Part shown: positions 5,144 through 27,053 of the stretch, one piece after another | Layout: every line of letters starts with the position of its first letter | Numbering within the stretch: position 1 is the first letter of the stretch | NCBI RefSeq assembly: GCF_000341895.1 | Contig: NC_020409.1 | Location: 2,100,001 to 2,132,000 of the forward strand | DNA: 32,000 bases | Reading direction: 5' to 3' | Source of the DNA: Pseudodesulfovibrio piezophilus C1TLV30 | GTDB lineage: Bacteria > Desulfobacterota > Desulfovibrionia > Desulfovibrionales > Desulfovibrionaceae | Translations under genes and position numbers: made by a program | The notes under the pieces: generated by a model | Seen by the model: the letters and a program-made list of their open reading frames with translations, nothing else | Told to the model about the DNA's origin: nothing | Databases searched by the model: none

Positions 5144-5920
5144 ATGATCGTTCAAACAATCATATCCCCCTGCTGGCAGGCGTCCCCCTCCGCTCTTGCC
5201 TCGAGCGTAAGCCATCTGGAGAACCTGCTCCAACATGCTCCGGACGAAACAGAGCTTTTCTTCCGCGCCGATGATATCGGTGTGCCAAGCAAGAACTGCC
5301 GCCACATGTTGGCACTCTTTGCCCGGCATCACATCCCGCTACACCTGGCCGTGACCCCGGCCTGGCTTTCTGAAACGCGATGGCAGATCCTCAGGGAATG
5401 GGCCGGGAAAGAGGACTCTCTCTGGATTTGGCACCAACACGGCTGGCGACACCAGAACCATCAGAAGAGTGGGAAAAAAGGAGAATTCGGCCAGGACCGC
5501 TCCAGCGAAGCAAAGCAGGCCGACATCATCAAAGGTCGCGAAAAACTGATTGGACTGATGGGGACCGACTTCGCGCCAGTCTTTACCCCGCCGTGGAATC
5601 GATTCGACACGGTGACCGGAGGCATTCTCGCTGAAGCGGGCTATCGTGCGGTTTCCCGATCAGTCGGCGAAATGAAAAAAGTCCCCTTGCCTGCCTGCCT
5701 GCCTGATTATGCCATCAACGTGGACCTGCATACGCGCTCGGAAGCCCTCCCCCAAAATGGACTCCAGACCCTGCTCGATGAATTTCGTCTGGCAATGGAT
5801 TCCGGTCGAATAGGAATCATGCTGCACCACCAACGCATGAACGACGCCTCTTTTTCCTTTCTGGACAGTCTCTTGTCGCTCGCAAAAAAAATAAAACGAT
5901 TCAAATTGACAACTCTATAA
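5144..5920 (+). CDS. Polysaccharide deacetylase-like (NodB/CE4-like) protein
   Basis: Motifs appear in the NodB order: FRADDIG (Asp-Asp), WHQHGWRH (H-x3-H metal ligands), FTPPWNRFD (RPPxG-like). There is no obvious signal peptide. The family assignment rests on motif recognition only. Confidence 0.55.
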   Translation: MIVQTIISPCWQASPSALASSVSHLENLLQHAPDETELFFRADDIGVPSKNCRHMLALFARHHIPLHLAVTPAWLSETRWQILREWAGKEDSLWIWHQHGWRHQNHQKSGKKGEFGQDRSSEAKQADIIKGREKLIGLMGTDFAPVFTPPWNRFDTVTGGILAEAGYRAVSRSVGEMKKVPLPACLPDYAINVDLHTRSEALPQNGLQTLLDEFRLAMDSGRIGIMLHHQRMNDASFSFLDSLLSLAKKIKRFKLTTL

Positions 5921-5965
5921 GCTCTTACATGTAGGAAATATTCGCAGATTCCTCACGCGATTCCC

Positions 5966-5994
5966 TTGTCATGGCTGGCCCCCTCGCTTAGTAT
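5966..5994 (+). promoter_or_regulatory. Possible sigma-70-type promoter for the ABC operon
   Basis: TTGTCA (5966-5971), 17 nt, TAGTAT (5989-5994). If it is used, the transcript would start at or after the ATG at 5995, so the true start of the first gene could be GTG 6004 or ATG 6034/6037. This is a weak call. Confidence 0.25.
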
Positions 5995-6741
5995 ATGGAG
6001 AACGTGGAAATTCAACCGGTTAATCATGGGGGCATGATGGGATGGCATAGCCGAGAGCAAAAAGGACTCACAGAAAATCAGGAAGACCGCATAAAAAGGC
6101 TCATTACCCTGCCCTTTGCCAAATCGGTGGAGATCAGCTTCAAGAGTCTCAAGGTGCGTTTTTTTCGCTCCATGATCACCGTATCCAGCCTGGTTCTGGC
6201 TGTCTCCTTTCTGTCATTTGTTCTGGTCAATCTCGATATCGCCTCCGGCCTGCTTCGGGAAGGTGGCACCGATGCTGCCCGGTCACTGGCTCTGGCCGGG
6301 TATGACGTCAACCTTGCCCAGGGGCTGGTTGCCATGTCGGCGAAGGAACGGTGGATCATCATCCTTTCCCTGCTCGTCTGTACCGTTGGCATCATCAATG
6401 CCCAATTGATGTCGGTCACCGAACGGTTCTCAGAAATCGGAGTCATGAAATGCCTGGGTGCTCTGGACTCCATGATTCTCAAGCTTTTTCTGCTCGAAGC
6501 CGCCATGCAGGGAATATTCGGCGCGGCCATCGGAGCAGTGACAGGCTTTGTTTTCTCCCTGGTCACCGGGTTTTTCCGATTCGGCCCCATGGCCCTTTCC
6601 GGGTTGTCCCTGACGGACGCCCTCGGCTCCGTGGGATTGGCGACCCTCGGCGGCTGCAGCCTGAGTCTTATCGGCGTTCTCTATCCCGCACTTCTCGCAG
6701 CACGCATGGAACCAATCAACGCCATCCGCGCCGAGCACTGA
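5995..6741 (+). CDS. Minimal FtsX/MacB-type ABC permease (4 TM, very short periplasmic loop)
   Basis: TM1 is MITVSSLVLAVSFLSFVLVNL and only about 45 aa separate it from TM2. The FtsX core is ERFSEIGVMKCLGALDSMILKLFLLEAAMQGIFGAAIGAVTG. The C-terminus LYPALLAARMEPINAIRAEH is typical of the family. The start is uncertain (see the promoter note). Confidence 0.8.
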   Translation: MENVEIQPVNHGGMMGWHSREQKGLTENQEDRIKRLITLPFAKSVEISFKSLKVRFFRSMITVSSLVLAVSFLSFVLVNLDIASGLLREGGTDAARSLALAGYDVNLAQGLVAMSAKERWIIILSLLVCTVGIINAQLMSVTERFSEIGVMKCLGALDSMILKLFLLEAAMQGIFGAAIGAVTGFVFSLVTGFFRFGPMALSGLSLTDALGSVGLATLGGCSLSLIGVLYPALLAARMEPINAIRAEH

Positions 6742-6750
6742 GGATTTTAC

Positions 6751-7530
6751 ATGTCTGAACAAAAGAAAACAATCGTCCGAGTCATTGGCGTGAGGAAGAC
6801 TTTCACCATTGGCAAGCAGAAACTCCAGGCTCTCAAGGGAGTCGATCTTGAAATATTCTCCGGTGAATACATTTCCATCATGGGACCATCGGGGTCAGGG
6901 AAATCAACTCTTTTCAATATGATCGGCGGGCTGGACAAACCCACTGACGGCAAGGTGTTCATCGATGAAGTCGATATCTCGCAACTTGATGCCTATGAGC
7001 TGGCATGGCTCCGCAATCGCAAAATCGGATATATTTTCCAGACATTCAATCTGATTCCGGTCATGACCGCCCTTGAGAACGTGACTCTCCCCATGACCTT
7101 TGCCGGGATGAATAATGACGATGCCCAGGAAAAAGGCATCGAACTGCTCAAATTGGTCGGACTGGGGGAGCGTTTCCAGCACAAGCCGCTGGAACTGTCC
7201 GGCGGTCAGCAGCAACGCGTAGCCGTAGCCCGTTCCCTAGCCAATGACCCGGCCATCATCCTGGCAGACGAACCCACGGGAAATCTCGATCTGACTACAG
7301 GCGAAGAAATCATCGAACTGCTCCAGATGCTCTCCAGCGAGCGAGGCGTGACCGTCATTTCCGCAACCCACGATTACAAAATGCTCAACGTTTCCGATCG
7401 CGTGGTCTGGGTGCGGGATGGCATGGTGGACAGAGTGGAGAAAAGGGAAGAACTCGATATCTCCATTGGAGGCATAGGAGAAAAACTCACTGGACAGAAA
7501 AAGGAATCCCAGACCGGAGGGCACTCCTAA
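6751..7530 (+). CDS. ABC transporter ATP-binding protein (MacB/LolD/FtsE-like NBD)
   Basis: Walker A is GPSGSGKST, the signature is LSGGQQQRVAVARSL, and Walker B is ILADEPTGNLD. The gene starts 9 nt after the upstream permease and ends 3 nt before the giant gene. Confidence 0.95.
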   Translation: MSEQKKTIVRVIGVRKTFTIGKQKLQALKGVDLEIFSGEYISIMGPSGSGKSTLFNMIGGLDKPTDGKVFIDEVDISQLDAYELAWLRNRKIGYIFQTFNLIPVMTALENVTLPMTFAGMNNDDAQEKGIELLKLVGLGERFQHKPLELSGGQQQRVAVARSLANDPAIILADEPTGNLDLTTGEEIIELLQMLSSERGVTVISATHDYKMLNVSDRVVWVRDGMVDRVEKREELDISIGGIGEKLTGQKKESQTGGHS

Positions 7531-7533
7531 CCC

Positions 7534-10500
7534 ATGTCCAGCAGGCAGCGCGGCAGCATAAACCGGACGCCATGGAGATCGGAAGGACCACACCGTTCCT
7601 TGCGAAACTGGCAACTGTACACCCTCATCATCTTTTTAGCACTGGCCTGGGCCTCCACTGCCATGGCAGATGAGACCTCGCTGATCCGCAGGCTGTCAGA
7701 CCTCGGCGACCGATCCGCAGGCTCTCCCGGCGCTGTTGCTGCCGCCGATATGGTGGAAAACGAATTCCAACGTCTTTTCCCGAACGCCATCATCGGCAGG
7801 CAAACCTTCCACATCCCAACTATCAAGCAAACAAATGTGACGTTGACGATTTCGGATCAGACGCGTTCGATACAACTGAGTCAGCTGCGGGTCAATGCAC
7901 TCTCGCCGGGAGCCATCGCGCCTCCCGGCATCGAAGCCCCCTTACTCTATGTCGGGCAGGGAGCCCTCACCGATTTCAATGGTCACGATGTCCAGGGTGC
8001 TGTTGTTCTCATGGATATGGATTCGGCGAAGAACTGGAACAATGCAGCCATGCTCGGTGCTCGGGCACTCATCTTTCTGGGGCGCGGCGGCAATGGCGGT
8101 CCTGCTCCACGAGCACTTTTCAAGGACAAATTCGAACAGACCCCGGTGGATTTCCCGCTTTTCTGGGTCGCACGCGAACGAGCCGAGTCCCTGTTCGGCA
8201 CCAATTTCCCCAGCCAGGGCACGGCTGTCCTGACTCGTATCCGCCTGACCTCGGCATCGGCATGGCACAAGAGTTCCGCCGAAAATATCTATTGCATGAT
8301 CCCTGGCAGTGACCCTGAACTTTCGCACCAGACACTCATCATTCAGGCCCCTTATGACGACAGCGCACTTGTGGCTGGCGACGCCCCCGGAGCCGAAGAA
8401 GCCGTTTCCATGGCCACCCTCCTGGACACGGCTGCCGAATTTGCAGAAAACCCTCCCCAAAGATCACTCTTCCTCCTGGCGACGGCCGGAACAGGGCAGG
8501 CCCAGGCAGGGATGCGTGAATTCACCTACGCTCTGGTCACGAAGGGAAAGGAACTCAAGGAGCGCAAAAACAGACTTGAACAACAGGTCATCAACGCCGG
8601 ACGTGTTCTTGAGATACTGCGTCCCATCAAGCCTCTCGAACAAGCAGCACTGTCAACAGAACAGATCGTCCTGCTCAAGAAGGCTTTCAAGGCCGTGGTT
8701 CGCAACGCAGAGGACACTCTGACCAATGAATTGATGCGCCTGCGCCTGCTCAATGCAGAAGGAGCACAGGAAAAAAGGAACCCGGCACGGCAAAAGCGTA
8801 TCAAGGAACTGGCAGACCGCAGGATTCGACTCAAACGCTTGAACTGGGTCAATTCCACCACGGACGATTTCCCTCTGGCCCGAGAGGAACACACCGTGCT
8901 GCTCGACTTCATTCCCGCAGCCATAACCCTCCAGGCAGCGATTCTCGACGATGCCACGGGGCAACTCAAGGAGATAACCTCGGCCCGCGCCATGCGCGAC
9001 GCCATCGGGGACCGAAGTATCGCAGCCCACGTTTCCCTACACCTCTCCAGCCATGGCAACGGTGTCGGCGCATTCGACAAGGGGTGGCTCAATAATCTGA
9101 AGCCGACCATCAACCGGACCGCCTTTTTCCGCCCCATTGATACTGTCCTCAAAAACAGCATGAAAACGTTCGCTGAAGAACGCCCGGACATTGCAGCCCT
9201 CTTTCACGATACCCTGCGGCCGGGAAAACGCGCCTGGCAGAGTTACCTTCCCGATCAGCCGGAGCTGGGAGGCGAACCCATGGCCCTGGCCGGATTTGCC
9301 GGGCTGACTCTGGCGACTGTCCACGATGTTCGCCCAACATGGGGCACACCCTATGATCAGCCGGAGCGAGTCAATTTCACCTCCATGAGAAAACAGAGTG
9401 AATTAGTCAAACACTTACTAAACGCTCTGGCATCCCAGCCCATTGAAAATGCCGGAGAACGTGGCAGGAACAACTTTGTCACCATAGAAGGCCGTGCCAA
9501 TCTTCTGAGAAAAGGAGAGATCTTCCCGGATCGCCCCGGAACCGGCATGGTCGTGCTCGCCTTCCAATGGCAAACCCGCAACTACGCCATGGTTGATACG
9601 GCGGGGACATTCCGGATTCCGGGCTTGGCCAGCAAAAAGGTCAGTTATCACAAGGCCGTGATCGAGGCATTCAAATTCAATGAAAAGACAGGCCTGGCCG
9701 ATTGGGCCATCGACAAGCCCAAAACAGGAAGAGATGCCTACCGCATCAAGCTTAACCGTGCGGTCCAATCCACGGACCTGATCCTCTTCGCCTGCACCCA
9801 GACAACACTGTTCGATCTCTTTGATCCGAGGACATTCAAATACCTTTACCGCCCCACGCTCATTGACGGCCGAACCGAAGCACCGCCGGTCAGCTATTGG
9901 TACAGCCGACTCGACACGCGCCGATCCACCCTCGGCACACTCTTTCTGGAACCAGACACCCCCCTCAAACTGACCCTGTCAGACACAGTACTCGATAAAA
10001 AAGTCCTGCTCCTCAATGCCGATGAAAAACACCCTCAAGGACTGGGGTATATCGCCAGACAATGGCCGGTCATTCCCATGACTGAATATCGGGCCGCCCG
10101 CGATATGTGGTCGCTCCTGGCTCCGCGTATTGAGACACTGGAATCAAAAGGCATCGTCAATGAACGCATCCGTACCCTGCGGCATCTCGGCATCAACGAC
10201 CTGAACCGGGCCGGGCAGTACAAGACAGAGAAACAGTGGGATAAGTTCGTAGAAGCGGCACGATCCTCCCTGGCCAAGGCAAGCCGGGTCTACAACGATG
10301 TGGACAAGACCCAGAAAGACGTGCTGGTTGGAGTCCTGTTCTATGTCGCGCTGTTCGTTCCCTTTGCCTACTGCATGGAGCGGCTCTTTTTCTCATTCGC
10401 TGACATCAGGAAACGCATCAGCGCATTTCTCGGCTTCCTGATCGCTATCATCGGCGTCATCTACATGGTCCACCCTGCATTTCAGCTCACCTATTCTCCC

Positions 10501-12510
10501 CTGGTGGTGATCCTCGCCTTTTTCATTCTCGCTTTGTCACTGCTGGTTTCCCTGATCATCTTTTCCCGCTTTGAACGAGAAATGGTCGAGTTGCAAAAAC
10601 GATCCGCCCATATCAAGCTGACCGGAATCAGTCCGGCAGCGGCCTTTGGTGCGGCCTTCGTGCTCGGGGTCGGCAATCTCAAACGAAGGCCCATTCGCAC
10701 ATTCCTGACCTTTGCCACCCTTGTCATCCTCACTTTTACCATCATGAATTTCACCACGGTTAAATCCGTGCGGCAGAAAGGCTGGGCCACCTTCAGCGAC
10801 ATCGCGACGTACAACGGACGACTCCTCAAATACTTCAACTGGCAAAACGTTCCGGTCGAAGCTCTCTCCGTGCTCGAAAATGCCTATCAGAACAAAGGCA
10901 TCGTCGTGCCCAGGGCATGGTATGACACGGGCCTGACCTCCGATAAATCCCGTGCTCCGCTCATCCCTGTCACCATGAATGGGGTGGAGACCCCTGCCCG
11001 AGGCATGATCGGATTGTCCTTCCTTGAGCCACAGGTCAGCGGACTGGATCGTATCCTGGTCAAAGGACGTTGGTTCGAAAAAGGGGAACGCTTCGTTGCC
11101 ATGCTCCCCGAACGCATGGCAGCACAGCTCAATGCCGATCCCAACGACCCGCAACGTAATACGTTGACCATATGGGGACTCGAAATCAAGCTGGTCGGTA
11201 TTTTTCGGGATGACGGACTGCGAGACAATCCAGATCTTGACGGCGAACCCATGACGCCCATAGTGTTTCCGAACCAGGCCGCCACCCAGCTTTCCGAAGT
11301 CGAAGCCGAAGCTATCGAAGACGGCGATGATGTCGTTTCCACCGAGTCCCGCTATCAACATATTCCAGGCTATGAAACCGTCATTATCCCGGCCGAAAAC
11401 ATGCTCGCCATCGGCAATGGCAAACTCAAGGGTATTGCCGTCAAGCCCAATGAAGGCGTAACCGAAGTTTCCGGGGATCTGGGTGACCGTTTCGGCATGT
11501 TGCTCTTTCGAGGCAGTGACTCCGGGACTTCCCTCTATTTTGCCACCGATGCCGTCAACTATTCAGGTATGGCCAATATCCTGATCCCCCTTGCCATTTC
11601 CATCCTGATTGTCCTGAACACCATGGTCGGTTCGGTTTATGAGCGCAAATCGGAAATTGCGGTCTACACTTCAGTGGGACTGGCTCCCCCCCATGTAGCC
11701 TTTCTGTTCATTGCCGAAGCCCTGGCATTCGGCGTTATCTCCGTGGTTGTCGGCTACCTGCTGGCACAAGGCTCTTCAGCGTTTCTGGCAGGAACGCCCC
11801 TCTGGGCAGGCATGACTGCCAACTACTCTTCCACCGCAGGCGTGGCCGCCATGCTTCTGGTTCTCGGCGTGGTACTGGTGTCGGCCATTTATCCGGCCAG
11901 GGTTGCCGCACGAATTGCCATCCCCGACGTCAACAAATCCTGGACCATGCCCAAGGCACACGGAGATGAACTGATCGTGATCCTGCCATTTCTGATCAAA
12001 GTTGACGAAATGGCTTCGGCCGGAGGATTTCTGCAACAATACTACATGGCACACCATGATGTTTCCCACGGAGCTTTCTGCACAGACGACATGCGATGCA
12101 ACTTTCTGGACCTGGAGCAACAGGAACTGAAAACCGGACTGCTCATGGGCTTGCCGGACGGCCACCCCATGCCCGATGATCTCTGCTTTTCCCTAGACCT
12201 GCGAGTCTGGCTGGCTCCCTTTGATTTCGGTGTGCGCCAAAAGGTCAAACTTGTCTTCTGCCCATCCGATCTCTACCAAGGATTCCGTCAGGTCCGCGTG
12301 GTCATCCTGCGTGAAGCAGGGGAACACAAGGCGTGGGAAGGGTTGAACAGAAATTTCCTCAATGACCTGAGAAAACAGCTCTTGGCCTGGCGATCTCTGG
12401 ACGAAGAAGCTGTGGAACACTATGCTGTGACCCTGAACTCCCACATGAAACGAGTCATGGATGGAATGACTCCGGACGCCATGAACGAAAACGACGAAGG
12501 CTCAATATGA
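7534..12510 (+). CDS. 1658-aa fusion protein with five parts: signal/anchor, M28/PA peptidase-like periplasmic module (degenerate active site), coiled coil, extra TM bundle, and FtsX/MacB-type permease with a C-terminal cytoplasmic extension
   Basis: - The N-terminus has a basic stretch followed by LIIFLALAWASTAMA-DE.
- An M28-like start SAGSPGAVAAADMVENEF is followed by a PA-like insert (VQGAVVLMDMD...GARALIFL) and the motifs IIQAPYDDS, GAEEAVSMATLL and LLATAGTGQAQAG.
- A Lys/Glu/Arg-rich helical segment runs from about 8540 to 8940.
- Three TM segments occur around 10321-10575.
- The FtsX N-motif is LKRRPIRTFLTFATLVILTF, followed by a periplasmic domain of about 230 aa.
- The FtsX core is YERKSEIAVYTSVGLAPPHVAFLFIAEALAFGV...IYPARVAARIAIPD, followed by about 190 more aa. 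Confidence 0.85.
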   Translation: MSSRQRGSINRTPWRSEGPHRSLRNWQLYTLIIFLALAWASTAMADETSLIRRLSDLGDRSAGSPGAVAAADMVENEFQRLFPNAIIGRQTFHIPTIKQTNVTLTISDQTRSIQLSQLRVNALSPGAIAPPGIEAPLLYVGQGALTDFNGHDVQGAVVLMDMDSAKNWNNAAMLGARALIFLGRGGNGGPAPRALFKDKFEQTPVDFPLFWVARERAESLFGTNFPSQGTAVLTRIRLTSASAWHKSSAENIYCMIPGSDPELSHQTLIIQAPYDDSALVAGDAPGAEEAVSMATLLDTAAEFAENPPQRSLFLLATAGTGQAQAGMREFTYALVTKGKELKERKNRLEQQVINAGRVLEILRPIKPLEQAALSTEQIVLLKKAFKAVVRNAEDTLTNELMRLRLLNAEGAQEKRNPARQKRIKELADRRIRLKRLNWVNSTTDDFPLAREEHTVLLDFIPAAITLQAAILDDATGQLKEITSARAMRDAIGDRSIAAHVSLHLSSHGNGVGAFDKGWLNNLKPTINRTAFFRPIDTVLKNSMKTFAEERPDIAALFHDTLRPGKRAWQSYLPDQPELGGEPMALAGFAGLTLATVHDVRPTWGTPYDQPERVNFTSMRKQSELVKHLLNALASQPIENAGERGRNNFVTIEGRANLLRKGEIFPDRPGTGMVVLAFQWQTRNYAMVDTAGTFRIPGLASKKVSYHKAVIEAFKFNEKTGLADWAIDKPKTGRDAYRIKLNRAVQSTDLILFACTQTTLFDLFDPRTFKYLYRPTLIDGRTEAPPVSYWYSRLDTRRSTLGTLFLEPDTPLKLTLSDTVLDKKVLLLNADEKHPQGLGYIARQWPVIPMTEYRAARDMWSLLAPRIETLESKGIVNERIRTLRHLGINDLNRAGQYKTEKQWDKFVEAARSSLAKASRVYNDVDKTQKDVLVGVLFYVALFVPFAYCMERLFFSFADIRKRISAFLGFLIAIIGVIYMVHPAFQLTYSPLVVILAFFILALSLLVSLIIFSRFEREMVELQKRSAHIKLTGISPAAAFGAAFVLGVGNLKRRPIRTFLTFATLVILTFTIMNFTTVKSVRQKGWATFSDIATYNGRLLKYFNWQNVPVEALSVLENAYQNKGIVVPRAWYDTGLTSDKSRAPLIPVTMNGVETPARGMIGLSFLEPQVSGLDRILVKGRWFEKGERFVAMLPERMAAQLNADPNDPQRNTLTIWGLEIKLVGIFRDDGLRDNPDLDGEPMTPIVFPNQAATQLSEVEAEAIEDGDDVVSTESRYQHIPGYETVIIPAENMLAIGNGKLKGIAVKPNEGVTEVSGDLGDRFGMLLFRGSDSGTSLYFATDAVNYSGMANILIPLAISILIVLNTMVGSVYERKSEIAVYTSVGLAPPHVAFLFIAEALAFGVISVVVGYLLAQGSSAFLAGTPLWAGMTANYSSTAGVAAMLLVLGVVLVSAIYPARVAARIAIPDVNKSWTMPKAHGDELIVILPFLIKVDEMASAGGFLQQYYMAHHDVSHGAFCTDDMRCNFLDLEQQELKTGLLMGLPDGHPMPDDLCFSLDLRVWLAPFDFGVRQKVKLVFCPSDLYQGFRQVRVVILREAGEHKAWEGLNRNFLNDLRKQLLAWRSLDEEAVEHYAVTLNSHMKRVMDGMTPDAMNENDEGSI

Positions 12511-14513
12511 ACGGACGAATCAGGATACGGGCGCTTGTGACCGGGCTTTTGCTCGGCCTTTTCCTCTGTATCTTCACACCCTACAACAACACCGTTCTTC
12601 ATAATACTCCGCTGGGCGGCGGCCATTTTCCCCTGGCTCCCTTCTTTATCATCGCATGGTTGTTCGTACTCGACGCCCTTGCTGCCCGACTCAGCCGCCG
12701 ACGCCCCTTTTATTCCGGCGTGGAATTGCTCGTGATCTGGCTGATGACCGTATTGTTCACATCCATCGGCTATGCCGGGCTCAGCGAGTGTTTCTTCATC
12801 AACATCACCGCACCAGAACACTTTGCGCAAGATGCCTATCGCTGGACGGAAGTCCTGACTCCCCTGCTGCCAAAATCATGGTTTCCGGACTCCACTCAGG
12901 CTGTGCATGTTTTTTATGAAGGTATCAGAAATGGCCGTACCATGGGCGTCCTCGAAGTCCTGTCGTCCATACCCTGGCATGTCTGGCTTCCCGTGCTGGC
13001 TGTCTGGGCCTTGTTCATTCTGGGAGCTTTTTTTGTCATGATCTGCCTGATGGTCCTCTTCGGCCGTCAATGGGTGGTCAACGAGCGCGTCCTGTTCCCC
13101 CTCGTCCGTGTTCCCATGCTCATGGGCGAAGCCCTGGACCAAAGACAATTCCTGGACTGGTGGTCCAACCGATATCTGCTCATCGGATTGACCTTTGCCG
13201 GAGCACTGCACCTGCTCAACGGACTGCATTTCTATTTTCCCTCAATTCCCCAGATGCCCACACTGGTGCTGGCCGGCACCTACTTCCCGAAGTTCGGCCT
13301 CTTTTCCGGCTTCCACAAGCTCAAAATGTTTTTTGTTCCCGCTTTCATCGGCTTCGCCTTCCTGACAACACGACAAATATCCTTTTCCATGTGGGTCTTT
13401 TACATCCTCGGCGGCCTCCTCTTCGGGGTGCTCTATATCTTTGGCTGGCAACTCCCGGAAGCCGCACTCGGCACGACCCTTGGACCTGACCTTGCCCGGC
13501 CCGAAGGCGCGCAGACCATCGGAGCCTACATTATCTTCTTTATTTTTCTGCTCTGGCTGGCCCGCCATCACCTGAAAGAAACCGTTATCTGCTTCCTGCG
13601 ACCGGTCTGCCACAGTTCCGAACTGGAAGGGAAAGGGAAATTCGACACCATCCCCAAGGAATGGGGACCGCCCATCTGGCCGCTATGGGGACTCATTGGC
13701 GGACTGGTCGGTCTCTCCGCCTGGTGCTGGTTCTTCGGCCTGCCTCTCCTGGCCGCGCTCTTCCTGCCACTAATGTTTCTCATCTTCACTCTGGTGACCA
13801 GTCGCATCGTCTGTCAGGGAGGACTTCCCTATTTCACGCTCACAGCAGCCCCATCCGACGCTTTGATGGGGTTCTTCGGCACAGGCTTTTTCGGGACTGT
13901 CGGAATCGCCGCCACCGCAGTTATGCAAAAGGTCCTCTTCCTCGACATGCGTGAGGCTCTCGCCCCCACTCTTTTTCATGGTTCAAAGATCAGGCAGGAA
14001 GCCCGACAGCGTCATCTCGTGCTTATAGCCATCGGCATAGCATTGGTCCTTGCCCTGACTACAGCCTTTGTGACCATGTTGTTTCTCGGCTACAAATACG
14101 GTCTCCGGGAACTTGGCCTGGATTGGGCAACTCAGACCGTTCTCGCCAACTACCAAAACGCCCAGCGGCTTGTGGACCAGCCCGTGGGACCCAATGGATG
14201 GACTCTCACCTATGCCGGGGCAGGAGCCGTTGTCATGGGATTACTCATTTTCTGCTACTATAAGATTCCCTGGTGGCCCCTGCATCCTCTCGGCTATCTC
14301 GTCGCCTATTCCGGGGGAATGAAGATTCTCTGGTTCCCGTTCTTTCTTGGCTGGTTATGCAACCACCTCGTTCTCCATTATGGTGGCACGGCCTTGTTCA
14401 ATCGTGTCCGTTTTCTTTTTGTCGGCCTGATCCTCGGCGACTTTCTGATGGGAGGTGTTTTTACTATAGTCGGCTTGTTCAACAACCAAAGCTACTCTGT
14501 TTTCCCTCTTTAA
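12507..14513 (+). CDS. Polytopic membrane protein (668 aa), distant OPT-superfamily-like; possibly the DUF6785/DUF6784 type
   Basis: ATGA start/stop overlap with the giant gene. At least 14 hydrophobic segments. NERVLFPLVRVP and the C-terminal WWPLHPLGYLVAYS...FLGWLCNHLVLHYGG...GLILGDFLMGG resemble OPT-type motifs. The DUF names come from memory and are unverified. Confidence 0.75.
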   Translation: MNGRIRIRALVTGLLLGLFLCIFTPYNNTVLHNTPLGGGHFPLAPFFIIAWLFVLDALAARLSRRRPFYSGVELLVIWLMTVLFTSIGYAGLSECFFINITAPEHFAQDAYRWTEVLTPLLPKSWFPDSTQAVHVFYEGIRNGRTMGVLEVLSSIPWHVWLPVLAVWALFILGAFFVMICLMVLFGRQWVVNERVLFPLVRVPMLMGEALDQRQFLDWWSNRYLLIGLTFAGALHLLNGLHFYFPSIPQMPTLVLAGTYFPKFGLFSGFHKLKMFFVPAFIGFAFLTTRQISFSMWVFYILGGLLFGVLYIFGWQLPEAALGTTLGPDLARPEGAQTIGAYIIFFIFLLWLARHHLKETVICFLRPVCHSSELEGKGKFDTIPKEWGPPIWPLWGLIGGLVGLSAWCWFFGLPLLAALFLPLMFLIFTLVTSRIVCQGGLPYFTLTAAPSDALMGFFGTGFFGTVGIAATAVMQKVLFLDMREALAPTLFHGSKIRQEARQRHLVLIAIGIALVLALTTAFVTMLFLGYKYGLRELGLDWATQTVLANYQNAQRLVDQPVGPNGWTLTYAGAGAVVMGLLIFCYYKIPWWPLHPLGYLVAYSGGMKILWFPFFLGWLCNHLVLHYGGTALFNRVRFLFVGLILGDFLMGGVFTIVGLFNNQSYSVFPL

Positions 14514-14632
14514 CCTGACAAATGGAAAAACTCTGTTGATATGAAAAACTTCTCCCCTGACGCACTGACACAATAAAAAACAAAGCCGCCCTCCTCTTTC
14601 CCTGCGAGACAGAGTGATCTCCAGAAGAAAAG

Positions 14633-16621
14633 ATGGTCTGGAGGCCGGGAACATGGACCCCTATGTACGACGACAAAGAACTCCAGGAATACCGAAATTT
14701 AATGAAGCCCCCCGAGCATTTCGAGGAGGGCTTTGACTGGAAAACCATTGTCGGTGCGGTGTTCATCGGTTTTCTGATGATGCCCGGCTCCATGTACCTG
14801 CAATTGGTCATCGGACAAGGCATCGGCCCGGCAGCGCGGTGGGTGACGATCATCCTTTTTGCCGAGATCGCAAAACGCTCATATACCCATCTGAAACAAC
14901 AGGAAATTTTCCTTCTTTACTATATGGCTGGGGCTGCGCTGGCGTCTCCATTCCAAGGGTTGCTCTGGAATCAATACCTTATCCAGTCCGATGCAGCCCG
15001 GATGCTCGGATTGACGGAGTTCATCCCGCACTGGGTCGCCCCGGCACTAGGATCCGGCTCCTACCTGGAGCGGACCTTCATGCACCGCGATTGGCTGGTG
15101 CCGATCATGCTGTTGGTGGGTGCGCAACTCGTCCAGCGCATTGACCATTTCGGATTAGGATATTCCCTGTACCGTATCACTTCGGATGTGGAAAAGCTCC
15201 CGTTTCCCATGGCTCCGGTGGGAGCATTGGGTACTATGGCCCTGGCTGAGTCCACCGAGGATCGCAAGACAGGGTGGAAATGGCGAATCTTTTCCATCGG
15301 CGGCGTAATCGGTCTGCTCTTCGGCTTTTTCTATGTTCTCCTTCCCGCGCTCTCCGGCCTGCTGTTCACAGAACCAATACGGCTGATTCCCATCCCATGG
15401 ATCGAACTCACCCAGTACACGGAAGCCATGCTCCCGGCAGTGGCAACTGGTATCCAGTTCGATCTGGGACTGGTCTTCGTGGGGATGGTCCTGCCATTCT
15501 GGGCTGTGATCGGCGGCTTGCTGGGACTGGTTATCACCATCATCGCCAACCCCATCCTGTACACCCATGGCATCCTGCATCGCTGGCATCCAGGCATGGC
15601 CACGGTTGAAACCGTTTTCGCCAATAATTTTGATTTCTACATGAGTTTCGGCATTGGACTGGGGCTGGCAATCGGGGCCGTCGGCATTTACCACGTCCTG
15701 CGATCATTCAAGGATTCAAGAGGAAACGGATTGGACTTCTCGGCCCTGTTCAATCCGCCCAAAGGACGTGGCGACATCAATTTCTGGGTTTCCATCGGCA
15801 TCTATGTCTTCTCGACGCTCTGCTACATCGCTTTTTGCGTCTGGCTGGTACCGTCATTCCCATGGATATTCTTCGTTATCTACGGCTTCATCTACACACC
15901 TGTCATATCGTACATTACAGCACGGATGGAGGGTGTGGCCGGGCAGTTCATAGCCCTGCCCATGGTGCGTGAATTTTCCTTCATTGCCGGAGCCAAGTTC
16001 TTTGGCTACCAGGGGTTGGAGATCTGGTATGCTCCAATTCCCATCCATAACTATGGCGAAGCAACCGTCCAGTTCCGGCAAATTGAACTGACCGGAACAA
16101 GCCTGCGCGGCATCATCAAGGCCGAGATCATCGTTTTCCCCATCGTGATGATCACCTCGCTTCTCTTCTCGCAATTCTTATGGCAACTCGCACCGATCCC
16201 CTCACCGGAATACCCTTTCGCGCAGGAATTATGGCATTTACAGGCATTGAATACCTTGCTCATGCAGACTTCGACACTGGAAGGCAATTCCCTGTTCTTC
16301 GAAGCGCTTTCCGGTCCCATTGTCCTGTCCGGACTGGGGCTTGGCCTTGGTATGTATGCGGTGCTCAATATTCTGGGACTTCCGGTCCTGCTGATCTACG
16401 GGGTGGTCCGAGGTTTGGGCCAATCCACCCCCCATGGTATGATATTGGAAGTCATCGGGGCTATGCTTGGGCGTCTGTATTTTCTGAAAAAATATGGGAC
16501 CCAGTGGCGGCACTACGCCCCGGTTCTGCTGGCCGGATTCTCCTGCGGCATGGGCTTGACCGGCATGTTCGCCATGGGCTGCACCCTGATTCTCAAGTCA
16601 CTGGGCCGCCTTGCCTATTAG
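14633..16621 (+). CDS. Polytopic membrane protein (662 aa), OPT (oligopeptide transporter) superfamily-like
   Basis: The N-terminal FDWKTIVGAVFIGFLMMPGSMYLQLVIGQGIGPAARWVTIILFAEIAKR resembles the OPT TM1-2 region. EKLPFPMAPVGALGTMAL resembles the OPT L-P-(F/Y)-P-x-G motif. The C-terminal GAMLGRLYFLKKYG...LLAGFSCGMGLTGM is OPT-like. ATG 14663 is an alternative start. Confidence 0.75.
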   Translation: MVWRPGTWTPMYDDKELQEYRNLMKPPEHFEEGFDWKTIVGAVFIGFLMMPGSMYLQLVIGQGIGPAARWVTIILFAEIAKRSYTHLKQQEIFLLYYMAGAALASPFQGLLWNQYLIQSDAARMLGLTEFIPHWVAPALGSGSYLERTFMHRDWLVPIMLLVGAQLVQRIDHFGLGYSLYRITSDVEKLPFPMAPVGALGTMALAESTEDRKTGWKWRIFSIGGVIGLLFGFFYVLLPALSGLLFTEPIRLIPIPWIELTQYTEAMLPAVATGIQFDLGLVFVGMVLPFWAVIGGLLGLVITIIANPILYTHGILHRWHPGMATVETVFANNFDFYMSFGIGLGLAIGAVGIYHVLRSFKDSRGNGLDFSALFNPPKGRGDINFWVSIGIYVFSTLCYIAFCVWLVPSFPWIFFVIYGFIYTPVISYITARMEGVAGQFIALPMVREFSFIAGAKFFGYQGLEIWYAPIPIHNYGEATVQFRQIELTGTSLRGIIKAEIIVFPIVMITSLLFSQFLWQLAPIPSPEYPFAQELWHLQALNTLLMQTSTLEGNSLFFEALSGPIVLSGLGLGLGMYAVLNILGLPVLLIYGVVRGLGQSTPHGMILEVIGAMLGRLYFLKKYGTQWRHYAPVLLAGFSCGMGLTGMFAMGCTLILKSLGRLAY

Positions 16622-16734: not shown

Positions 16735-16780
16735 AAAAGACCTGATGCTTCATACTCGAAGCATCAGGTCTTTTATTTCC
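16735..16780. terminator. Bidirectional rho-independent terminator
   Basis: aaaagacctgatgcttc (16735-16751) pairs perfectly with gaagcatcaggtctttt (16758-16774) across the loop atactc. T-runs follow on both strands. It lies between the operon end (16621, +) and the topA stop (16843, -). Confidence 0.75.
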
Positions 16781-19491: not shown

Positions 19492-21111
19492 TTACAATTC
19501 AAGACTCAGACAATCCAATTGCCTGAGTGCATCCAGATGCTCCGAGTGCTTGAAAAAAAATTTGATATCATTACCAAGGGCATTGGAAAACGCCCTGTTA
19601 TCAGTAGGACGACTTATGACGTTGGTTCCGCTACTTTGATGGTGAACACAGGTCACGGTGCCACAATACATGACTTTATGACCAGCAAGGCACATGGCAA
19701 GATCGTGATCGATATCGTCTATCTGCGACGGAGAGAAACGGATATCAAAACCATGCGGCGCGTCCCTGAGAGCCTTGGTTCTGAGCAGGTGTTGGCAGCC
19801 CATGACATTACGAGTTTCCCGAATGAAGGCATAGGTGCCGATGTCATAATGCTTGAAGGGCGTGTCGTTGCTCATGAGCAACAGACCGTGGTCTGCCACG
19901 GCAACATGCCTGTAAAGATACTGAAGCATGGCCGGTGTTCCGGGATGAACAATCTTGCAGCCCACCACAGCAATGGACGCATCTCTTTCTGCCACAGTCA
20001 GAAACTGGGACAGCCAGTCTTTTTGCACAGTCACGTCATCGTCAAGAAATGCCACATATTCCGATTGCCGAATTTCAGGTAACCCCAGCAACCAGTTCCG
20101 AGCGGCGGGAGCGCCGATGTTGACATGCAGGTCATGGAGAATAATCTCATTCTCAGGAAACCATGCCCGAGCCTCTTCCACCACATCCCTGCTGTAATCC
20201 GTGCACCCGTTGAGCAGGATATCAATGCGAGCCGGACCGATATCGGACTGACTCAGGCTTTCCAATGTCTGACGAAGCAGGGACGCCTTGTTCCAGGAAT
20301 AGAGGCAGATATTGACCCGGCAACTGGCAAGTAAGGAATGATCCGGCTGAAATGGCGACCGAAGTTCCCGCACGCGGGATTGAAGCGGTCCCTGTAACGG
20401 ATCCATAGCCAACGACTGTTCATACAAAGCCACGGCCTGATCAATTTCTCCTTTGAAAACAAACATCTCCGCAGCCATGTTGAGCGAGCTTTCTCTGAGC
20501 TGAGCCGGTCTGAGCTTGTGCCACAATGACCATGCCTTATCCATGCTTCCGAGGAATGCATAATGGTTGAAAAGCAGGATGTCCCATTCCTGTTTGAGAG
20601 GCAGGGGAGGTTTGAACTGATGAATCCACTCTCCCGGTTCCCTGCCCAGTAACTGGCCTATGTACAGAGCATGCTGCGCAGCCGGGACATGGTTTGGATG
20701 GGCGCTCAGCAGTTGCGAAAGATACCCGAGTACTTCTTCGGACTCATCCTGTTTGAGATTTTCTATCAATGTGTAGGTTTCGGCGGACTCATTGGTAGAC
20801 TGGACCAACTTGAGCCGATTTTCAATCATCGGATTTCCCGTGAGCTGGAAAGTGGACTCAAGGAAGCCCGGTTTGAGTGGGCAGAGTTGAAGTATTTTAT
20901 CCATGAGATACAAAAGCATCTTCTGGGCTTCCGGTGAGTGGTTGATGGCAGGATCAGCAGAAAGCCTGTCGATGAGACAGGCTCCCCCTGATGTATCAAT
21001 CAGGAATGAATTGAGATGGTTGTGGATATACCGAAGCAACTCATCAAGGGGAATCTCCCGTATTTGTGCCGGTAAACCCAATTGAAACAGCCTCAAATAA
21101 TTCTCATTCAT
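19492..21111 (-). CDS. TPR-like N-terminal domain fused to a family-2 glycosyltransferase (copy A)
   Basis: The C-terminal half reads VNICLYSWNK...ILLNGCTDYSRDVV...NIGAPAARNWLL...YVAFLDDDV...FDIRFSPSQIDDIDHDLAMCLAGHKVMY, a GT-A fold with a DxD motif. The N-terminal ~270 aa are helical repeats (SLNMAAEMFVFKGEIDQAVALYEQSLAMDP). AGAGG lies upstream of ATG 21111. Confidence 0.85.
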   Translation of the reverse strand: MNENYLRLFQLGLPAQIREIPLDELLRYIHNHLNSFLIDTSGGACLIDRLSADPAINHSPEAQKMLLYLMDKILQLCPLKPGFLESTFQLTGNPMIENRLKLVQSTNESAETYTLIENLKQDESEEVLGYLSQLLSAHPNHVPAAQHALYIGQLLGREPGEWIHQFKPPLPLKQEWDILLFNHYAFLGSMDKAWSLWHKLRPAQLRESSLNMAAEMFVFKGEIDQAVALYEQSLAMDPLQGPLQSRVRELRSPFQPDHSLLASCRVNICLYSWNKASLLRQTLESLSQSDIGPARIDILLNGCTDYSRDVVEEARAWFPENEIILHDLHVNIGAPAARNWLLGLPEIRQSEYVAFLDDDVTVQKDWLSQFLTVAERDASIAVVGCKIVHPGTPAMLQYLYRHVAVADHGLLLMSNDTPFKHYDIGTYAFIRETRNVMGCQHLLRTKALRDAPHGFDIRFSPSQIDDIDHDLAMCLAGHKVMYCGTVTCVHHQSSGTNVISRPTDNRAFSNALGNDIKFFFKHSEHLDALRQLDCLSLEL

Positions 21112-21212
21112 TGTTCGTACCTCTCATGAAGTGTTTTCGGCACATTTCAGGAGAGCTTTAGAAAATAAATGTTTCAAAGGAGGCAAACGCCCTTCCTCGG
21201 GCATGCTGCTCC

Positions 21213-22856: not shown

Positions 22857-23138
22857 GCAGGGACCGCCTTTGCTCGCTCCGGGTGATGTCATCAAGGGTG
22901 ATTGTCTCTCCCTATGCCACGCAGTCGGACATCATGACAAGGGCACCAGGGGCTTGAGGATGCCTCTTCTTTTGTTCCTTTACAGCGGCTATAGATTATT
23001 TCTAGAGTTAATGATCTGAAAAAATTGCACCTTTTTTCTATCATGTGCTTTTTGCAAAAAATCGGGTAGTTACATTGAATAGAGTCGTGATATATGTTTA
23101 TACAGCGCAAGGAATGTGCGTTTTCTTCATTAATTCAT

Positions 23139-24793: not shown

Positions 24794-24824
24794 CAAGTCC
24801 CTCACCCGTACCTGTGAGAATGGC

Positions 24825-25646: not shown

Positions 25647-25648
25647 CC

Positions 25649-26371: not shown

Positions 26372-26468
26372 TGACCTCCCCCAAAGGGACTGTCTAAACT
26401 TTGTCTGGAAAACCCGAGGAAATCGGGCTATGAACTGACAAGTCAAACGGAAAATAAAGGTGGCCAGC

Positions 26469-26972: not shown

Positions 26973-27053
26973 CACGCCTTTTGCATAAGTTAATGCGGGC
27001 CGTCCTGCTTTTGACGGCGGTGACAGGAACAAAGTTTTCATGAGGTAAGCGAC

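Follow-up and report, generated by a model that had tools for sequence, protein, structure and literature searches.

What is a peptidase-like domain doing at the N-terminus of a very large membrane protein that also carries an FtsX permease module, and can that domain still be a peptidase? An earlier note on this DNA, the 32,000-nucleotide stretch that we call the window, had read there an M28 layout with a PA-domain insert, the loss of zinc-binding and catalytic residues, and a tether to an FtsX engine.

The protein is the 1,658-residue product of an intact open reading frame of 4,977 nucleotides. It is a membrane protein of a sulfate-reducing bacterium, and its pseudo-M28 domain lies outside the cell membrane. 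Its parts are placed as follows (nucleotides of the window, strand, description and basis):

7534..12510, plus strand: giant open reading frame encoding a signal peptide, pseudo-M28/PA ectodomain, beta-rich domains, stalk helices, three transmembrane (TM) helices, MacB-like FtsX module and cytoplasmic tail
7534..7668, plus strand: N-terminal signal peptide or anchor, residues 1-45; hydrophobic core LYTLIIFLALAWASTAMA followed by DE, from the translation
7669..7917, plus strand: first segment of the M28-like domain, residues 46-128, with a conserved GDRSxGS motif; aligns to the N-termini of YwaD and 2EK8, helices and strands from the model
7918..8238, plus strand: PA domain inserted in the M28 fold, residues about 129-235, boundaries approximate; sub-threshold Pfam PA, alignments with YwaD, 2EK8 and the transferrin receptor (TfR), Foldseek
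8239..8541, plus strand: M28-like core with three degenerate motifs; hhalign against 1AMP, HMM alignment against YwaD, family table
8542..9006, plus strand: family-specific helical insertion of about 155 residues (337-491); model DSSP, alignments, conservation
9007..9453, plus strand: last third of the M28-like domain, residues 492-640; hhalign, second YwaD stretch, DSSP register, family table
9454..10080, plus strand: beta-rich ectodomain domains, residues 641-849; model pLDDT about 90
10081..10560, plus strand: long stalk helices (850-929) leading into three extra TM helices; DSSP and hydropathy scan
10690..11889, plus strand: complete MacB-type permease module; Pfam FtsX, MacB profile alignment, TM map
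11890..12507, plus strand: conserved C-terminal cytoplasmic domain, residues 1453-1658, alpha/beta; AlphaFold pLDDT 84

Homologues share an equal hydrophobic region and an A-x-A-like site at the N-terminus, and the signal peptide is probably cleaved, judging from these sequences. The hydropathy scan places the three extra TM helices at residues 930-948, about 963-983 and 991-1009. Neither the beta-rich domains (641-849) nor the C-terminal domain (1453-1658) has a Pfam match. The latter, as modelled, is possibly helix-grip-like; its Foldseek matches are weak and all are Bet v 1, PYL, CoxG or Rieske-oxygenase folds (E >= 2.6e-3, TM 0.3-0.4).

Taken alone, the query sequence gives little sign of its ancestry. 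Pfam finds FtsX in the giant protein, PA below threshold and nothing else, M28 staying below significance, and a single-sequence comparison with the M28/PA aminopeptidase 2EK8 reaches only E 0.045. A profile of 51 family members matches YwaD/BSAP (6HC6) at E 2e-14, 2EK8 at 4.7e-12, Vibrio aminopeptidase (1AMP) at 1.8e-5 and the transferrin receptor at 3.5e-3, with nicastrin (5A63) marginal at 0.18. The M28 family PF04389 is present in many homologues, in one of them (L074) with 39.9 bits where 21.3 are required. The AlphaFold model of residues 23-949 (pLDDT 91.3, pTM 0.88) points the same way: the top 50 Foldseek matches of the ectodomain are all M28/PA proteins, and the best in the PDB are 2EK8 (E 5.5e-19), then BSAP, PaAP, the transferrin receptor (E 1.5e-15) and GCPII/III, all of them M28 plus PA, with TM (target) of 0.55-0.65 for the M28 matches. 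For the PA insert itself, PF02225 matches residues 134-220 at E 2e-4 to 1e-3, its 19.6-21.8 bits falling just under the cut-off of 23.9, and is precomputed for some relatives. The region aligns to the PA domains of YwaD, 2EK8 and the transferrin receptor, the Foldseek matches are PA-bearing M28 proteins, and throughout the family the domain has an invariant Trp168 and Gly175. Residues 46-640 descend from a PA-domain-bearing M28 aminopeptidase and belong to M28 as a fold and homologous superfamily (MEROPS clan MH), with a PA fold inside the peptidase domain. The layout proposed from the letters is thereby supported by the family profile, the AlphaFold model and Foldseek.

The domain is longer than had been proposed. 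The span 7669-8523 (in frame, residues 46-330) had been taken as the whole, which left out the last third at 9007-9453. That third holds the fourth and fifth ligand positions, and its WGTPYD motif is the counterpart of the M28 'HT..D' motif. It lies beyond the helical insertion, which falls between the Glu-Glu position and the Asp179 position, forms four long helices in the model, carries conserved Asp394, Arg404, Arg430, Trp438 and Arg488, and has no counterpart in the alignments with YwaD, 2EK8 or AAP.

Can the domain hydrolyse peptides? As the reference for the chemistry we used the Vibrio proteolyticus enzyme, aligning the query by hhalign to the 1AMP sequence, checked as identical to 1AMP_A. 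For Asp179 and His256, the PA domain and the helical insertion were removed (251 columns, hhalign probability 89%). The equivalences are:

His97 of the Vibrio enzyme: Pro273 (8350-8352)
Asp99: Asp275 (8356-8358)
Asp117: Glu288 (8395-8397)
Glu151: Thr320 (8491-8493)
Glu152: Gly321 (8494-8496)
Asp179: His503 (9040-9042), in the motif SLHLSSHG
His256: Gly580/Glu581 (9271-9276), no His

The motif strings given in the earlier note are indeed present, QAPYDDS at residues 271-277 (8344-8364), GAEEAVS at 286-292 (8389-8409) and ATAGTGQAQAG at 316-326 (8479-8511). In the model the equivalent residues sit at the expected strand ends and helix starts, and the placing of His503 agrees with a strand end. 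At His256 the register is uncertain by one residue and hhalign confidence is low; there is no His anywhere in query residues 556-596. The claim that zinc-binding and catalytic residues were lost is thus borne out by the comparison with the Vibrio enzyme that the earlier note had proposed: substitutions affect the general-base Glu and each of the five zinc-ligand positions, and none of the positions of His97, Asp117, Glu151-Glu152, Asp179 and His256 holds the residue of an active co-catalytic zinc aminopeptidase. One detail has to be corrected. In the Vibrio enzyme the Asp of H-x-D is a second-shell residue and not a zinc ligand, and it is retained here as Asp275. With replacements at all ligand positions and at the general base, the M28-like domain is, to judge from its residues, incapable of co-catalytic two-zinc peptide hydrolysis.

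Conservation in orthologues was the second check proposed. Among 151 non-redundant relatives the losses of His97 and Glu151 are universal: position 97 is F141/P7/A2/Y1 and never His, and position 151, mostly H101/K34, is never Glu. The bridging Asp117, replaced by Glu in the query, is kept by 142 of the 151 and is the only canonical zinc ligand kept in most relatives. Position 152 is A90/S28/G26/D2 and position 179 is H105/Y36/F6/N2/D2; at position 256 the Gly580 register gives G133/S10/C5 and the Glu581 register E145. No member has the full canonical ligand set, and the ligand loss is ancient and common to the whole family. What replaced the ligands is itself conserved. About 60% of the 151 share the pocket consensus F-D-H-A-H-G-E, with Asp at position 117, His at 151 and 179, and Glu at 581. 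The columns of Asp99, Asp117, Phe97 and Glu581 rank 31-60 of 595 by entropy, and Arg328, Ser505, Ser506 and His507 are conserved at 90-99%, His507 in 136 of the 151. From the alignment and the secondary-structure register, these residues would cluster in space. The pocket is still conserved and is therefore probably a binding site rather than a decaying one.

The query itself is the outlier. Its pocket reads P-E-T-G-H-G-E, against F-D-K-S-Y-G-E in its own genus, from which it departs at three pocket positions; this could mean that the pocket matters less in this lineage. That its pocket is the most divergent of the 151 might even suggest a domain losing its function on the way to a pseudogene. 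We consider such decay extremely improbable: the reading frame of 4,977 nucleotides is intact, full-length orthologues at 32-73% identity occur in many orders with the same gene order, and AlphaFold models the entire ectodomain with confidence.

The same three unusual substitutions, which the query evidently tolerates, would also fit a purely structural role, in which the dead M28/PA domain spaces, oligomerises or stabilises a periplasmic assembly and has no specific ligand in the pocket. The transferrin receptor and GCPII are among the structural matches, inviting a likeness to the helical and protease-like domains of the transferrin-receptor dimer, and the further beta-rich domains and long helices of the ectodomain could carry the real function. 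Nevertheless, the vestigial pocket is among the best-conserved parts of the domain, across orders in which the protein is only about 45% identical overall, and this speaks for binding rather than for scaffolding alone. The family has also kept the PA domain, with its invariant Trp and Gly; in M28 proteins this domain usually forms a cap over the pocket. A scaffold without a ligand is, in our view, unlikely.

A different reading takes the replacement residues as a new active site. Since the old pocket of most relatives still has an Asp, a Glu and two or three His, it might contain a rebuilt metal site or support some new catalysis: a different, probably mononuclear, site (Asp 117, His 151, His 179, His507 and Glu581) would catalyse hydrolysis, or some other reaction, of a periplasmic substrate. 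Glutaminyl cyclase is one M28-fold enzyme with a changed function. More generally, the M28 fold also occurs in proteins whose metal content and function have changed (PMC4000134). The F-D-H-A-H-G-E signature, the retention of His507 in 136 of 151, and signature columns conserved far above the domain median all speak for such a site. It is not universally kept, however, as the Pseudodesulfovibrio clade has Lys and Tyr for the two His and the query has Glu, Thr, Gly and His, and in no family member is there an acidic general base at position 151. A neo-enzyme is thus quite improbable. Non-hydrolytic binding, to which we return below, is the reading that we prefer.

Around the giant gene, the window holds the following features:

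5144..5920, plus strand: accessory cytoplasmic protein, 258 aa, polysaccharide-deacetylase/DUF2334-like; Pfam E 1.3e-6 for both families
5995..6741, plus strand: small FtsX-type permease, 248 aa; Pfam FtsX E 4.9e-14, TM map
6751..7530, plus strand: ABC ATPase, 259 aa, LolD/MacB/FtsE type; Pfam ABC_tran E 1.4e-33
12507..14513, plus strand: polytopic membrane protein with DUF6785 and DUF6784, 668 aa; Pfam E 9.3e-145 and 1.1e-31
14633..16621, plus strand: polytopic membrane protein, 662 aa, OPT (oligopeptide transporter) superfamily, by transitive homology
16735..16774, no strand: hairpin with a 17-bp stem between the convergent OPT-like gene and topA; terminator scan

The tether to an FtsX engine stands: the M28 module is covalently joined to a complete FtsX/MacB-type permease, encoded beside an intact ABC ATPase. 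In the giant protein PF02687 matches residues 1350-1461 at E 7.5e-10, and hydropathy places TM1 at 1053-1071, a periplasmic domain at 1072-1348 and TM2-TM4 at 1349-1452. The family profile matches MacB 5LIL at E 3.5e-9, with residues 270-459 and 471-655 aligned over TM1 plus the periplasmic domain and over TM2-4, and several homologues contain PF12704 (MacB_PCD). This is the four-TM FtsX module of type VII ABC permeases, with its extracytoplasmic domain between TM1 and TM2, and the cognate cytoplasmic ATPase has intact motifs (Walker A GPSGSGKST, signature LSGGQQQR, Walker B ILADEPT and the H-loop). The best NCBIfam matches of the ATPase are LolD, MacB, DevA and FtsE, all below their cut-offs. 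The small FtsX protein has about 40 residues between TM1 and TM2 and no ectodomain; judging from gene order, the FtsX module of the giant protein probably forms a heterodimer with it. A tripartite efflux pump of the MacAB-TolC type was considered and rejected, as neither the window nor the conserved cluster contains a membrane-fusion (HlyD/MFP) or TolC-family gene.

The gene order small FtsX, ABC ATPase, giant protein, DUF6785, OPT-like recurs across Desulfobacterota, in loci from Desulfovibrionales, Desulfobacterales, Syntrophobacterales and others, and at least 456 genome stretches contain relatives. Where there is room for them, the small FtsX and ATPase genes lie upstream of the giant gene in 66 of 69 loci and the DUF6785 and OPT-like pair downstream in 49 of 52; in a few genomes the giant gene and ATPase lack the adjacent pair. 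The accessory deacetylase/DUF2334-like gene is found in only 30 of 83 loci. The start of the DUF6785/6784 gene and the stop of the giant frame overlap by 4 nt, and the hairpin beyond the OPT-like gene is likely the operon end. The OPT-like protein has no Pfam match even at E 10; its assignment to the OPT superfamily is transitive, 19 of 49 relatives (found at E <= 1e-47) matching PF03169 with a best E of 1.3e-17, and NCBI names its orthologues peptide transporter or OPT. It is the most conserved gene of the cluster, with 76-93% identity where the giant has about 45%, and is itself about 80% identical between orders; the ATPase is 75-95% identical across loci. Our literature search found no publication on any part of the five-gene system or on the giant family.

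Taken together, we hold with somewhat better than even confidence that the best explanation is a non-hydrolytic binding module on an ATP-driven MacB-type mechanotransducer. In the broader form left by the earlier note, a binding or scaffold module moved by ATP hydrolysis is plausible. The old pocket would be kept under selection, and the pseudo-peptidase most likely serves as a non-hydrolytic binding module, for which peptide-like molecules, metals or their chelates, and partner proteins are the candidate ligands. The signal peptide would export the domain, and the long stalk helices would hold it above a membrane part made of the three extra TM helices and the complete MacB-type FtsX module. 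This FtsX module and the small FtsX protein probably form a pair, joined by a dimer of the neighbouring ABC ATPase, in an asymmetric complex resembling LolCDE or BceAB. ATP binding and hydrolysis in the cytoplasm would then move the periplasmic domain, the 155-residue insertion and the pseudo-peptidase by way of the TM and stalk helices, which would amount to mechanotransmission and not to transport through the membrane. A bound ligand may in this way be captured, released or handed over, presumably with the DUF6785/6784 and OPT-superfamily proteins, the coupling to the OPT-like protein being suggested by gene order.

It is tempting to speculate further. In most members the rebuilt pocket could hold a single metal or other ligand, and the giant protein could be the extracytoplasmic receptor of a new kind of ABC-assisted system, one peculiar to sulfate reducers and related bacteria. 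We rate this proposal as rather doubtful. Its mechanotransducer may spend ATP to load, unload or gate the OPT-superfamily permease and its DUF6785/6784 partner; possible cargoes are peptides or metal chelates, which are in short supply in sulfidic habitats. The query protein may be a further-diverged variant of such a receptor.

Eukaryotic receptors such as the transferrin receptor and nicastrin provide examples of dead M28/PA domains, and FtsEX-EnvC is an example of a type VII ABC machine that drives a dead peptidase-fold factor; here both ideas are joined in one polypeptide. Oleidesulfovibrio alaskensis G20, a model organism amenable to genetic work, has the operon as the cluster around Dde_0728. 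The ligand of the pseudo-peptidase, once known, would give a function to a large and strongly constrained membrane system of sulfate reducers, and the few characterised non-peptidase homologues of M28 would gain a bacterial member.

Among known systems, the PA-domain M28 aminopeptidases (YwaD/BSAP 6HC6, Aneurinibacillus aminopeptidase 2EK8, P. aeruginosa PaAP 8ACK) have the same alpha/beta fold with PA inserted at the same place, and motifs remain recognisable round each ligand position (A-x-Y-D-S, P-G-A-D, the strand before E-E, W-G-T-P-x-D). The query differs from them in the substitution of all ligands and the general base, and in the 155-residue insertion between E-E and Asp179. Moreover, those are free secreted enzymes, whereas here the domain is the N-terminus of a membrane protein of 1,658 residues.

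Transferrin receptor and nicastrin are membrane-anchored and serve binding, not cleavage. Like the query, transferrin receptor 1 (1CX8, 1DE4) and nicastrin (5A63) combine an M28-like fold and a PA (apical) fold without a working zinc site, and proteins such as the transferrin receptor are recognised as a class of non-peptidase M28 homologues (PMC4000134). They are nevertheless eukaryotic and single-pass, their helical domain is C-terminal rather than inserted, they have no ABC engine, and in sequence they are only distantly related to the query (13% identity in the structural alignment).

FtsEX with EnvC, PcsB or RipC is a resemblance of working layout. In these systems a type VII ABC machine controls a degenerate or autoinhibited peptidoglycan-hydrolase factor via a coiled coil, a helical element that docks on the periplasmic domain of FtsX and passes on the ATP-driven movement; the 155-residue insertion would be the candidate for such an element in the query. 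The query system likewise has an FtsX-type permease, a cytoplasmic ATPase and a dead extracytoplasmic metallopeptidase-fold domain beside a long helical element, and to this extent the parallel with EnvC drawn in the earlier note survives as an analogy. Taken strictly, it would make the giant protein a regulator of cell division or the cell wall whose dead peptidase domain activates a peptidoglycan hydrolase. This we think very unlikely. The ATPase does reach 203.3 bits against the FtsE model, but the cut-off is 264.85, and against FtsX models (NCBIfam) the giant protein reaches 15.8 bits (E 0.0065) where 225 are required and the small FtsX protein 24.6-29.5 where 225-255 are. The dead domain of EnvC is LytM/M23 and bound in trans, whereas that of the query is M28 and fused in cis, probably in a heterodimer with a second, minimal FtsX protein. 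The conserved cluster contains no LytM, amidase or other cell-wall hydrolase gene, its partners being the OPT-like and DUF6785/6784 membrane proteins, and O. alaskensis G20 has the operon in addition to a separate ftsX, annotated as Dde_0115 (PMC12579266).

The architecture also resembles that of the type VII ABC mechanotransducers MacB, LolCDE and BceAB, which share with the query system an FtsX module of four TM helices whose periplasmic domain lies between TM1 and TM2. The nucleotide-binding domain is separate, as in LolD, and there are two different permease subunits, as in LolC/LolE. BceB combines a half with a small loop and a half with a large ectodomain, and here too one half is almost without an extracytoplasmic loop and the other has a large ectodomain. 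Unlike those systems, the cluster has the constant company of two large polytopic proteins, with no membrane-fusion protein or outer-membrane factor, and its giant permease is extended by about 205 residues at the C-terminus and by about 1,050 at the N-terminus, where the pseudo-peptidase, beta-rich domains, stalk helices and three TM helices have been added.

The ORF of the giant protein (window 7534-12510, + strand; 4,977 nt, 1,658 residues) contains the stretch 7669-8523 in frame, as residues 46-330. Translation returned the strings that the earlier note had reported there: QAPYDDS at residues 271-277, GAEEAVS at 286-292 and ATAGTGQAQAG at 316-326. Hydropathy and an AlphaFold model divide the chain as follows.

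Predicted layout of the giant protein (hydropathy and model)
Residues ~27-45: signal peptide with an A-x-A-like site
Residues 46-929: ectodomain, comprising the pseudo-M28/PA region, beta-rich domains (641-849) and long stalk helices (850-929)
Residues 930-948, ~963-983 and 991-1009: three extra TM helices
Residues 1010-1052: cytoplasmic linker
Residues 1053-1071: MacB-type TM1
Residues 1072-1348: periplasmic domain between TM1 and TM2
Residues 1349-1452: TM2-TM4
Residues 1453-1658 (window 11890-12507, + strand): conserved cytoplasmic tail

In the public-collection copy of the giant (P0001, an identical protein of 1,636 residues) the annotated start comes 22 codons after the ATG that we used (window 7534-7602, + strand); the longer form of 1,658 residues gains a basic N-region ahead of the hydrophobic core.

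The M28 layout with a PA insert that had been claimed for this module is supported by the family profile, the AlphaFold model and matches to PDB structures. The query sequence alone is insufficient to reveal it. Searched against Pfam and NCBIfam, even at E 10 and with fragments included in Pfam, the query gave no M28 match; Pfam returned FtsX (residues 1350-1461, E 7.5e-10) and, below threshold, a PA domain (134-220, E 1e-3), and phmmer against the PDB reached the M28/PA aminopeptidase 2EK8 at E 0.045. The M28 homology became visible only with a family profile or a structural model. A protein search recovered 89 homologues, nearly all of about 1,600 residues and the nearest from Pseudodesulfovibrio at 70% identity, and many of these carry a precomputed Peptidase_M28 match (PF04389). 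The profile built from 51 of the 89 matched the M28 enzymes 6HC6 (B. subtilis YwaD/BSAP; E 2e-14), 2EK8 (4.7e-12) and 1AMP (Vibrio proteolyticus aminopeptidase; 1.8e-5), transferrin receptor (3.5e-3) and, marginally, nicastrin (0.18), and MacB (5LIL; 3.5e-9), with both TM1 plus the periplasmic domain and TM2-4 aligned. AlphaFold modeled residues 23-949 with confidence (pLDDT 91.3, pTM 0.88), and each of the 50 best matches of this model in the PDB is an M28 protein that carries a PA domain (2EK8 at 5.5e-19, BSAP, PaAP, TfR, GCPII/III).

The Vibrio enzyme binds zinc through His97, Asp117, Glu152, Asp179 and His256 and uses Glu151 as general base. Our numbering was checked on the mature reference, which is identical to 1AMP_A over 291/291 residues. 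The equivalent residues in the query, and the residues found at each position in 151 non-redundant N-terminal regions (protein-search homologues and orthologues drawn from 80 genome loci), are given below.

Residues at 1AMP pocket positions in the query and in 151 relatives
His97: query Pro273; relatives F141, P7, A2, Y1
Asp99: query Asp275; relatives D147
Asp117: query Glu288; relatives D142, E4, G4
Glu151: query Thr320; relatives H101, K34, with Glu in none
Glu152: query Gly321; relatives A90, S28, G26, D2
Asp179: query His503; relatives H105, Y36, F6, N2, D2
His256: query Gly580/Glu581 by motif and secondary structure; relatives G133, then E145

The first five equivalences come from hhalign of the family against 1AMP, and an HMM alignment to YwaD repeats the first three. 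The whole family alignment ended at a helical insertion; only a construct with the PA domain and this insertion deleted ran through Asp179, pairing it with His503 (251 columns, probability 89%). The C-terminal third alone gave no hhalign alignment to 1AMP (two constructs, E 0.4). In the model, residue 273 lies at a strand end, 288 at a helix start, 320/321 three residues past a strand and 503 at a strand end, and M28 enzymes place their ligand-position residues likewise relative to strands and helices. The His256 equivalence is ambiguous: hhalign places it near Lys565/Arg566, and the register at Gly580/Glu581 rests on a conserved A-G-(F/Y)-P motif and a short helix from residue 581. Neither candidate stretch offers a histidine, as none occurs in residues 556-596 of the query. 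These equivalences indicate that the query has substitutions at the general base and at each of the five ligand positions, with the register at His256 less certain. Hhalign against 1AMP, the family profile and the model register bear out the earlier note's table of degenerate M28 motifs, with two amendments. First, the Asp of H-x-D (Asp99 of 1AMP), described there as a ligand, is one that we take to be a second-shell residue, and the query keeps it as Asp275. Canonical aminopeptidase chemistry has very probably been lost from the ectodomain.

Second, the domain extends further than had been proposed. In the AlphaFold model, about 155 residues of long helices (337-491) separate the Glu-Glu position from the Asp179 strand; neither YwaD nor 2EK8 nor the Vibrio enzyme has this insertion in our alignments. 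The M28 fold does not end at residue 330; its final third resumes past this insertion, at residues 492-640 (window 9007-9453, + strand).

The loss of the M28 ligands is common to the family and old. The most frequent pocket signature is F-D-H-A-H-G-E, and the Pseudodesulfovibrio clade has F-D-K-S-Y-G-E; because the change from His/His to Lys/Tyr tracks this clade, we counted it as approximately one event. The signature P-E-T-G-H-G-E belongs to the query only among the 151 relatives. Within its genus the query is an outlier at Pro273 (8350-8352), Glu288 (8395-8397) and Thr320 (8491-8493), where other Pseudodesulfovibrio have Phe, Asp and Lys. We rejected gene decay of the giant on the evidence of conservation. 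By entropy, columns 97, 99 and 117 and Glu581 stand at ranks 31-60 of 595, and the family is also close to fixed for Arg328, Ser505, Ser506 and His507 (the last in 136 of 151). The motif S-L-H-L-S-S-H-G at the Asp179 strand (window 9028-9057, + strand; residues 499-508) is nearly invariant in the family (Ser501 95%, Leu502 99%, His503 70% with Tyr at 24%, Leu504 100%, Ser505 98%, Ser506 97%, His507 90%). A new metal or ligand site could be built from this motif in combination with Asp at position 117, His at 151 and Glu581. Such a pattern is unlike a drifting relic, and the remodeled pocket is probably still in use for something other than two-zinc hydrolysis.

At the other end of the giant, the cytoplasmic tail is modeled confidently (pLDDT 84). 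Its Foldseek matches in the PDB are weak and all helix-grip folds (Bet v 1, PYR/PYL, CoxG and the Rieske-oxygenase alpha subunit; E at least 2.6e-3, TM 0.3-0.4), and we place the tail in no family; it may bind a small ligand on the cytoplasmic side.

The genes of the cluster (5144-16621) all lie on the + strand, head to tail.

Neighbors of the giant gene
5144-5920, + strand: deacetylase/DUF2334-like protein of 258 residues, cytoplasmic, with weak polysaccharide-deacetylase/DUF2334 similarity
5995-6741, + strand: small FtsX protein of 248 residues, with ~40 residues between TM1 and TM2
6751-7530, + strand: ABC ATPase with all motifs intact
12507-14513, + strand: DUF6785+DUF6784 polytopic protein, its start overlapping the stop of the giant gene
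14633-16621, + strand: OPT-like polytopic membrane protein of 662 residues
16735-16774: hairpin with a perfect 17-bp stem, between the convergent OPT-like gene and topA (16843-19260, - strand); probably a bidirectional terminator

A periplasmic domain is all but missing from the small FtsX protein, which implies a strongly asymmetric permease pair. The 662-residue protein has no Pfam or PDB match of its own, and sequence and profile searches of the PDB found nothing useful for it or for the DUF6785 protein. Its orthologues are named peptide transporter or OPT family by NCBI. Because 19 of 49 diverse relatives from an exhaustive HMMER search match PF03169 (best E 1.3e-17), we assign it to the OPT superfamily by transitive homology. 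The DUF6785/6784 and OPT-like proteins are not recognizable paralogues, as neither BLASTP nor hhalign detects similarity between them. Genes for a membrane-fusion protein, TolC, LytM or an amidase are absent from the cluster.

Our genome scan, with one genome per species, matched at least 600 stretches, and among the matches listed at least 456 encode a relative of the giant. The best 80 of these are almost all from Desulfobacterota (Desulfovibrionales, Desulfobacterales, Syntrophobacterales, Desulfatiglandales and others). The small FtsX and ATPase genes precede the giant gene in 66 of 69 loci, and the DUF6785 and OPT-like genes follow it in 49 of the 52 with room; of 83 related loci, 30 have a homologue of the deacetylase-like gene, in many cases immediately upstream. 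Across orders of Desulfobacterota the OPT-like protein keeps 76-93% identity where the giant has only about 45%; in the comparison with the query at that level of giant identity, the values are 76-82% for the OPT-like protein and 75-82% for the ATPase. The OPT-like protein is at least as conserved as the ABC ATPase. Oleidesulfovibrio alaskensis G20, a genetically tractable host, carries the whole cluster (CP000112.1 739612-761567, our locus L084), with Dde_0728 as the OPT-like gene and a Methyltransf_24 gene inserted between the small FtsX and ATPase genes. Its giant (1,720 residues) has a stronger M28 match and the pocket signature F-D-H-D-H-A-E, with Asp at the Glu152 position.

In two atypical loci (L027 and L074) the giant gene adjoins the ATPase gene only, and the small FtsX, DUF6785 and OPT-like genes are not adjacent. 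Housekeeping genes (der, mgsA, cinA, psd, leuB) flank the giant gene in L074; a tripartite efflux arrangement was rejected there, the upstream genes being der, mgsA and cinA, without MFP or TolC. In another related locus, L001, der is again found upstream of the cluster. Glycosyltransferase genes occur near the cluster in several loci (L001, L002). Our window also has a pair of neighboring genes for GT2 glycosyltransferase-domain proteins (540-560 residues, with long N-terminal extensions; 19492-22895, - strand), and a flagellar/motility block with motA, two motB-like genes, fliL, fliN and fliP, after which comes a gene for a LonB/LonC-like protease (24032-31769, + strand).

In this system one chain combines a pseudo-M28/PA ectodomain with a complete MacB-type permease; alongside it are a minimal FtsX protein as the second permease, a single ATPase gene that is intact, and two constant polytopic partners. 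We propose that the FtsX module of the giant, the small FtsX protein and two copies of the ATPase would form one complex. The TM and stalk helices might then relay ATP-driven motion to three parts: the periplasmic domain, the helical insertion and the pseudo-peptidase. The last of these would bind a ligand or partner without cleaving it. We lean slightly toward this picture of a binding module on a mechanotransducer as a whole. The OPT-family neighbor and the aminopeptidase ancestry, that is, gene names and descent only, hint at a ligand that is a peptide, peptide-like or a metal chelate; a peptide-related cargo seems to us rather doubtful.

Type VII ABC machines are known to drive peptidase-fold factors in FtsEX-EnvC, FtsEX-PcsB and FtsEX-RipC, and nicastrin is a non-peptidase homologue of the M28 enzymes. 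Such homologues are a recognized class, with transferrin receptors as the classic non-catalytic case and glutaminyl cyclase as an M28 homologue with changed activity (PMC4000134). The giant resembles both this class and the FtsEX-type systems in logic and is a member of neither. The earlier note's interpretation is supported in part, in that a pseudo-M28/PA domain sits on a complete MacB-type permease next to an intact ATPase gene; its comparison with FtsEX-EnvC is an analogy. The system falls below the FtsE/FtsX cut-offs, the dead domain belongs to M28 and not to LytM, the fusion is in cis, and the partners differ. The proposed pairing of giant and small FtsX would be a heterodimer like LolC/LolE, with an asymmetry like that of BceB. 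We found no literature on the giant family, DUF6785/6784 or the G20 locus (Dde_0724-0733), except that two G20 omics papers mention Dde_0728/0729 solely in lists of differentially expressed or methylated genes. Two known kinds of element, the pseudo-M28 domain and the type VII ABC mechanotransducer, are joined here in a conserved five-gene system that we could not find described. The dead-enzyme call by itself will not surprise specialists; what makes the system a worthwhile experimental target is how widely it occurs, how extremely its OPT-like protein is conserved, and its conserved, remodeled pocket.
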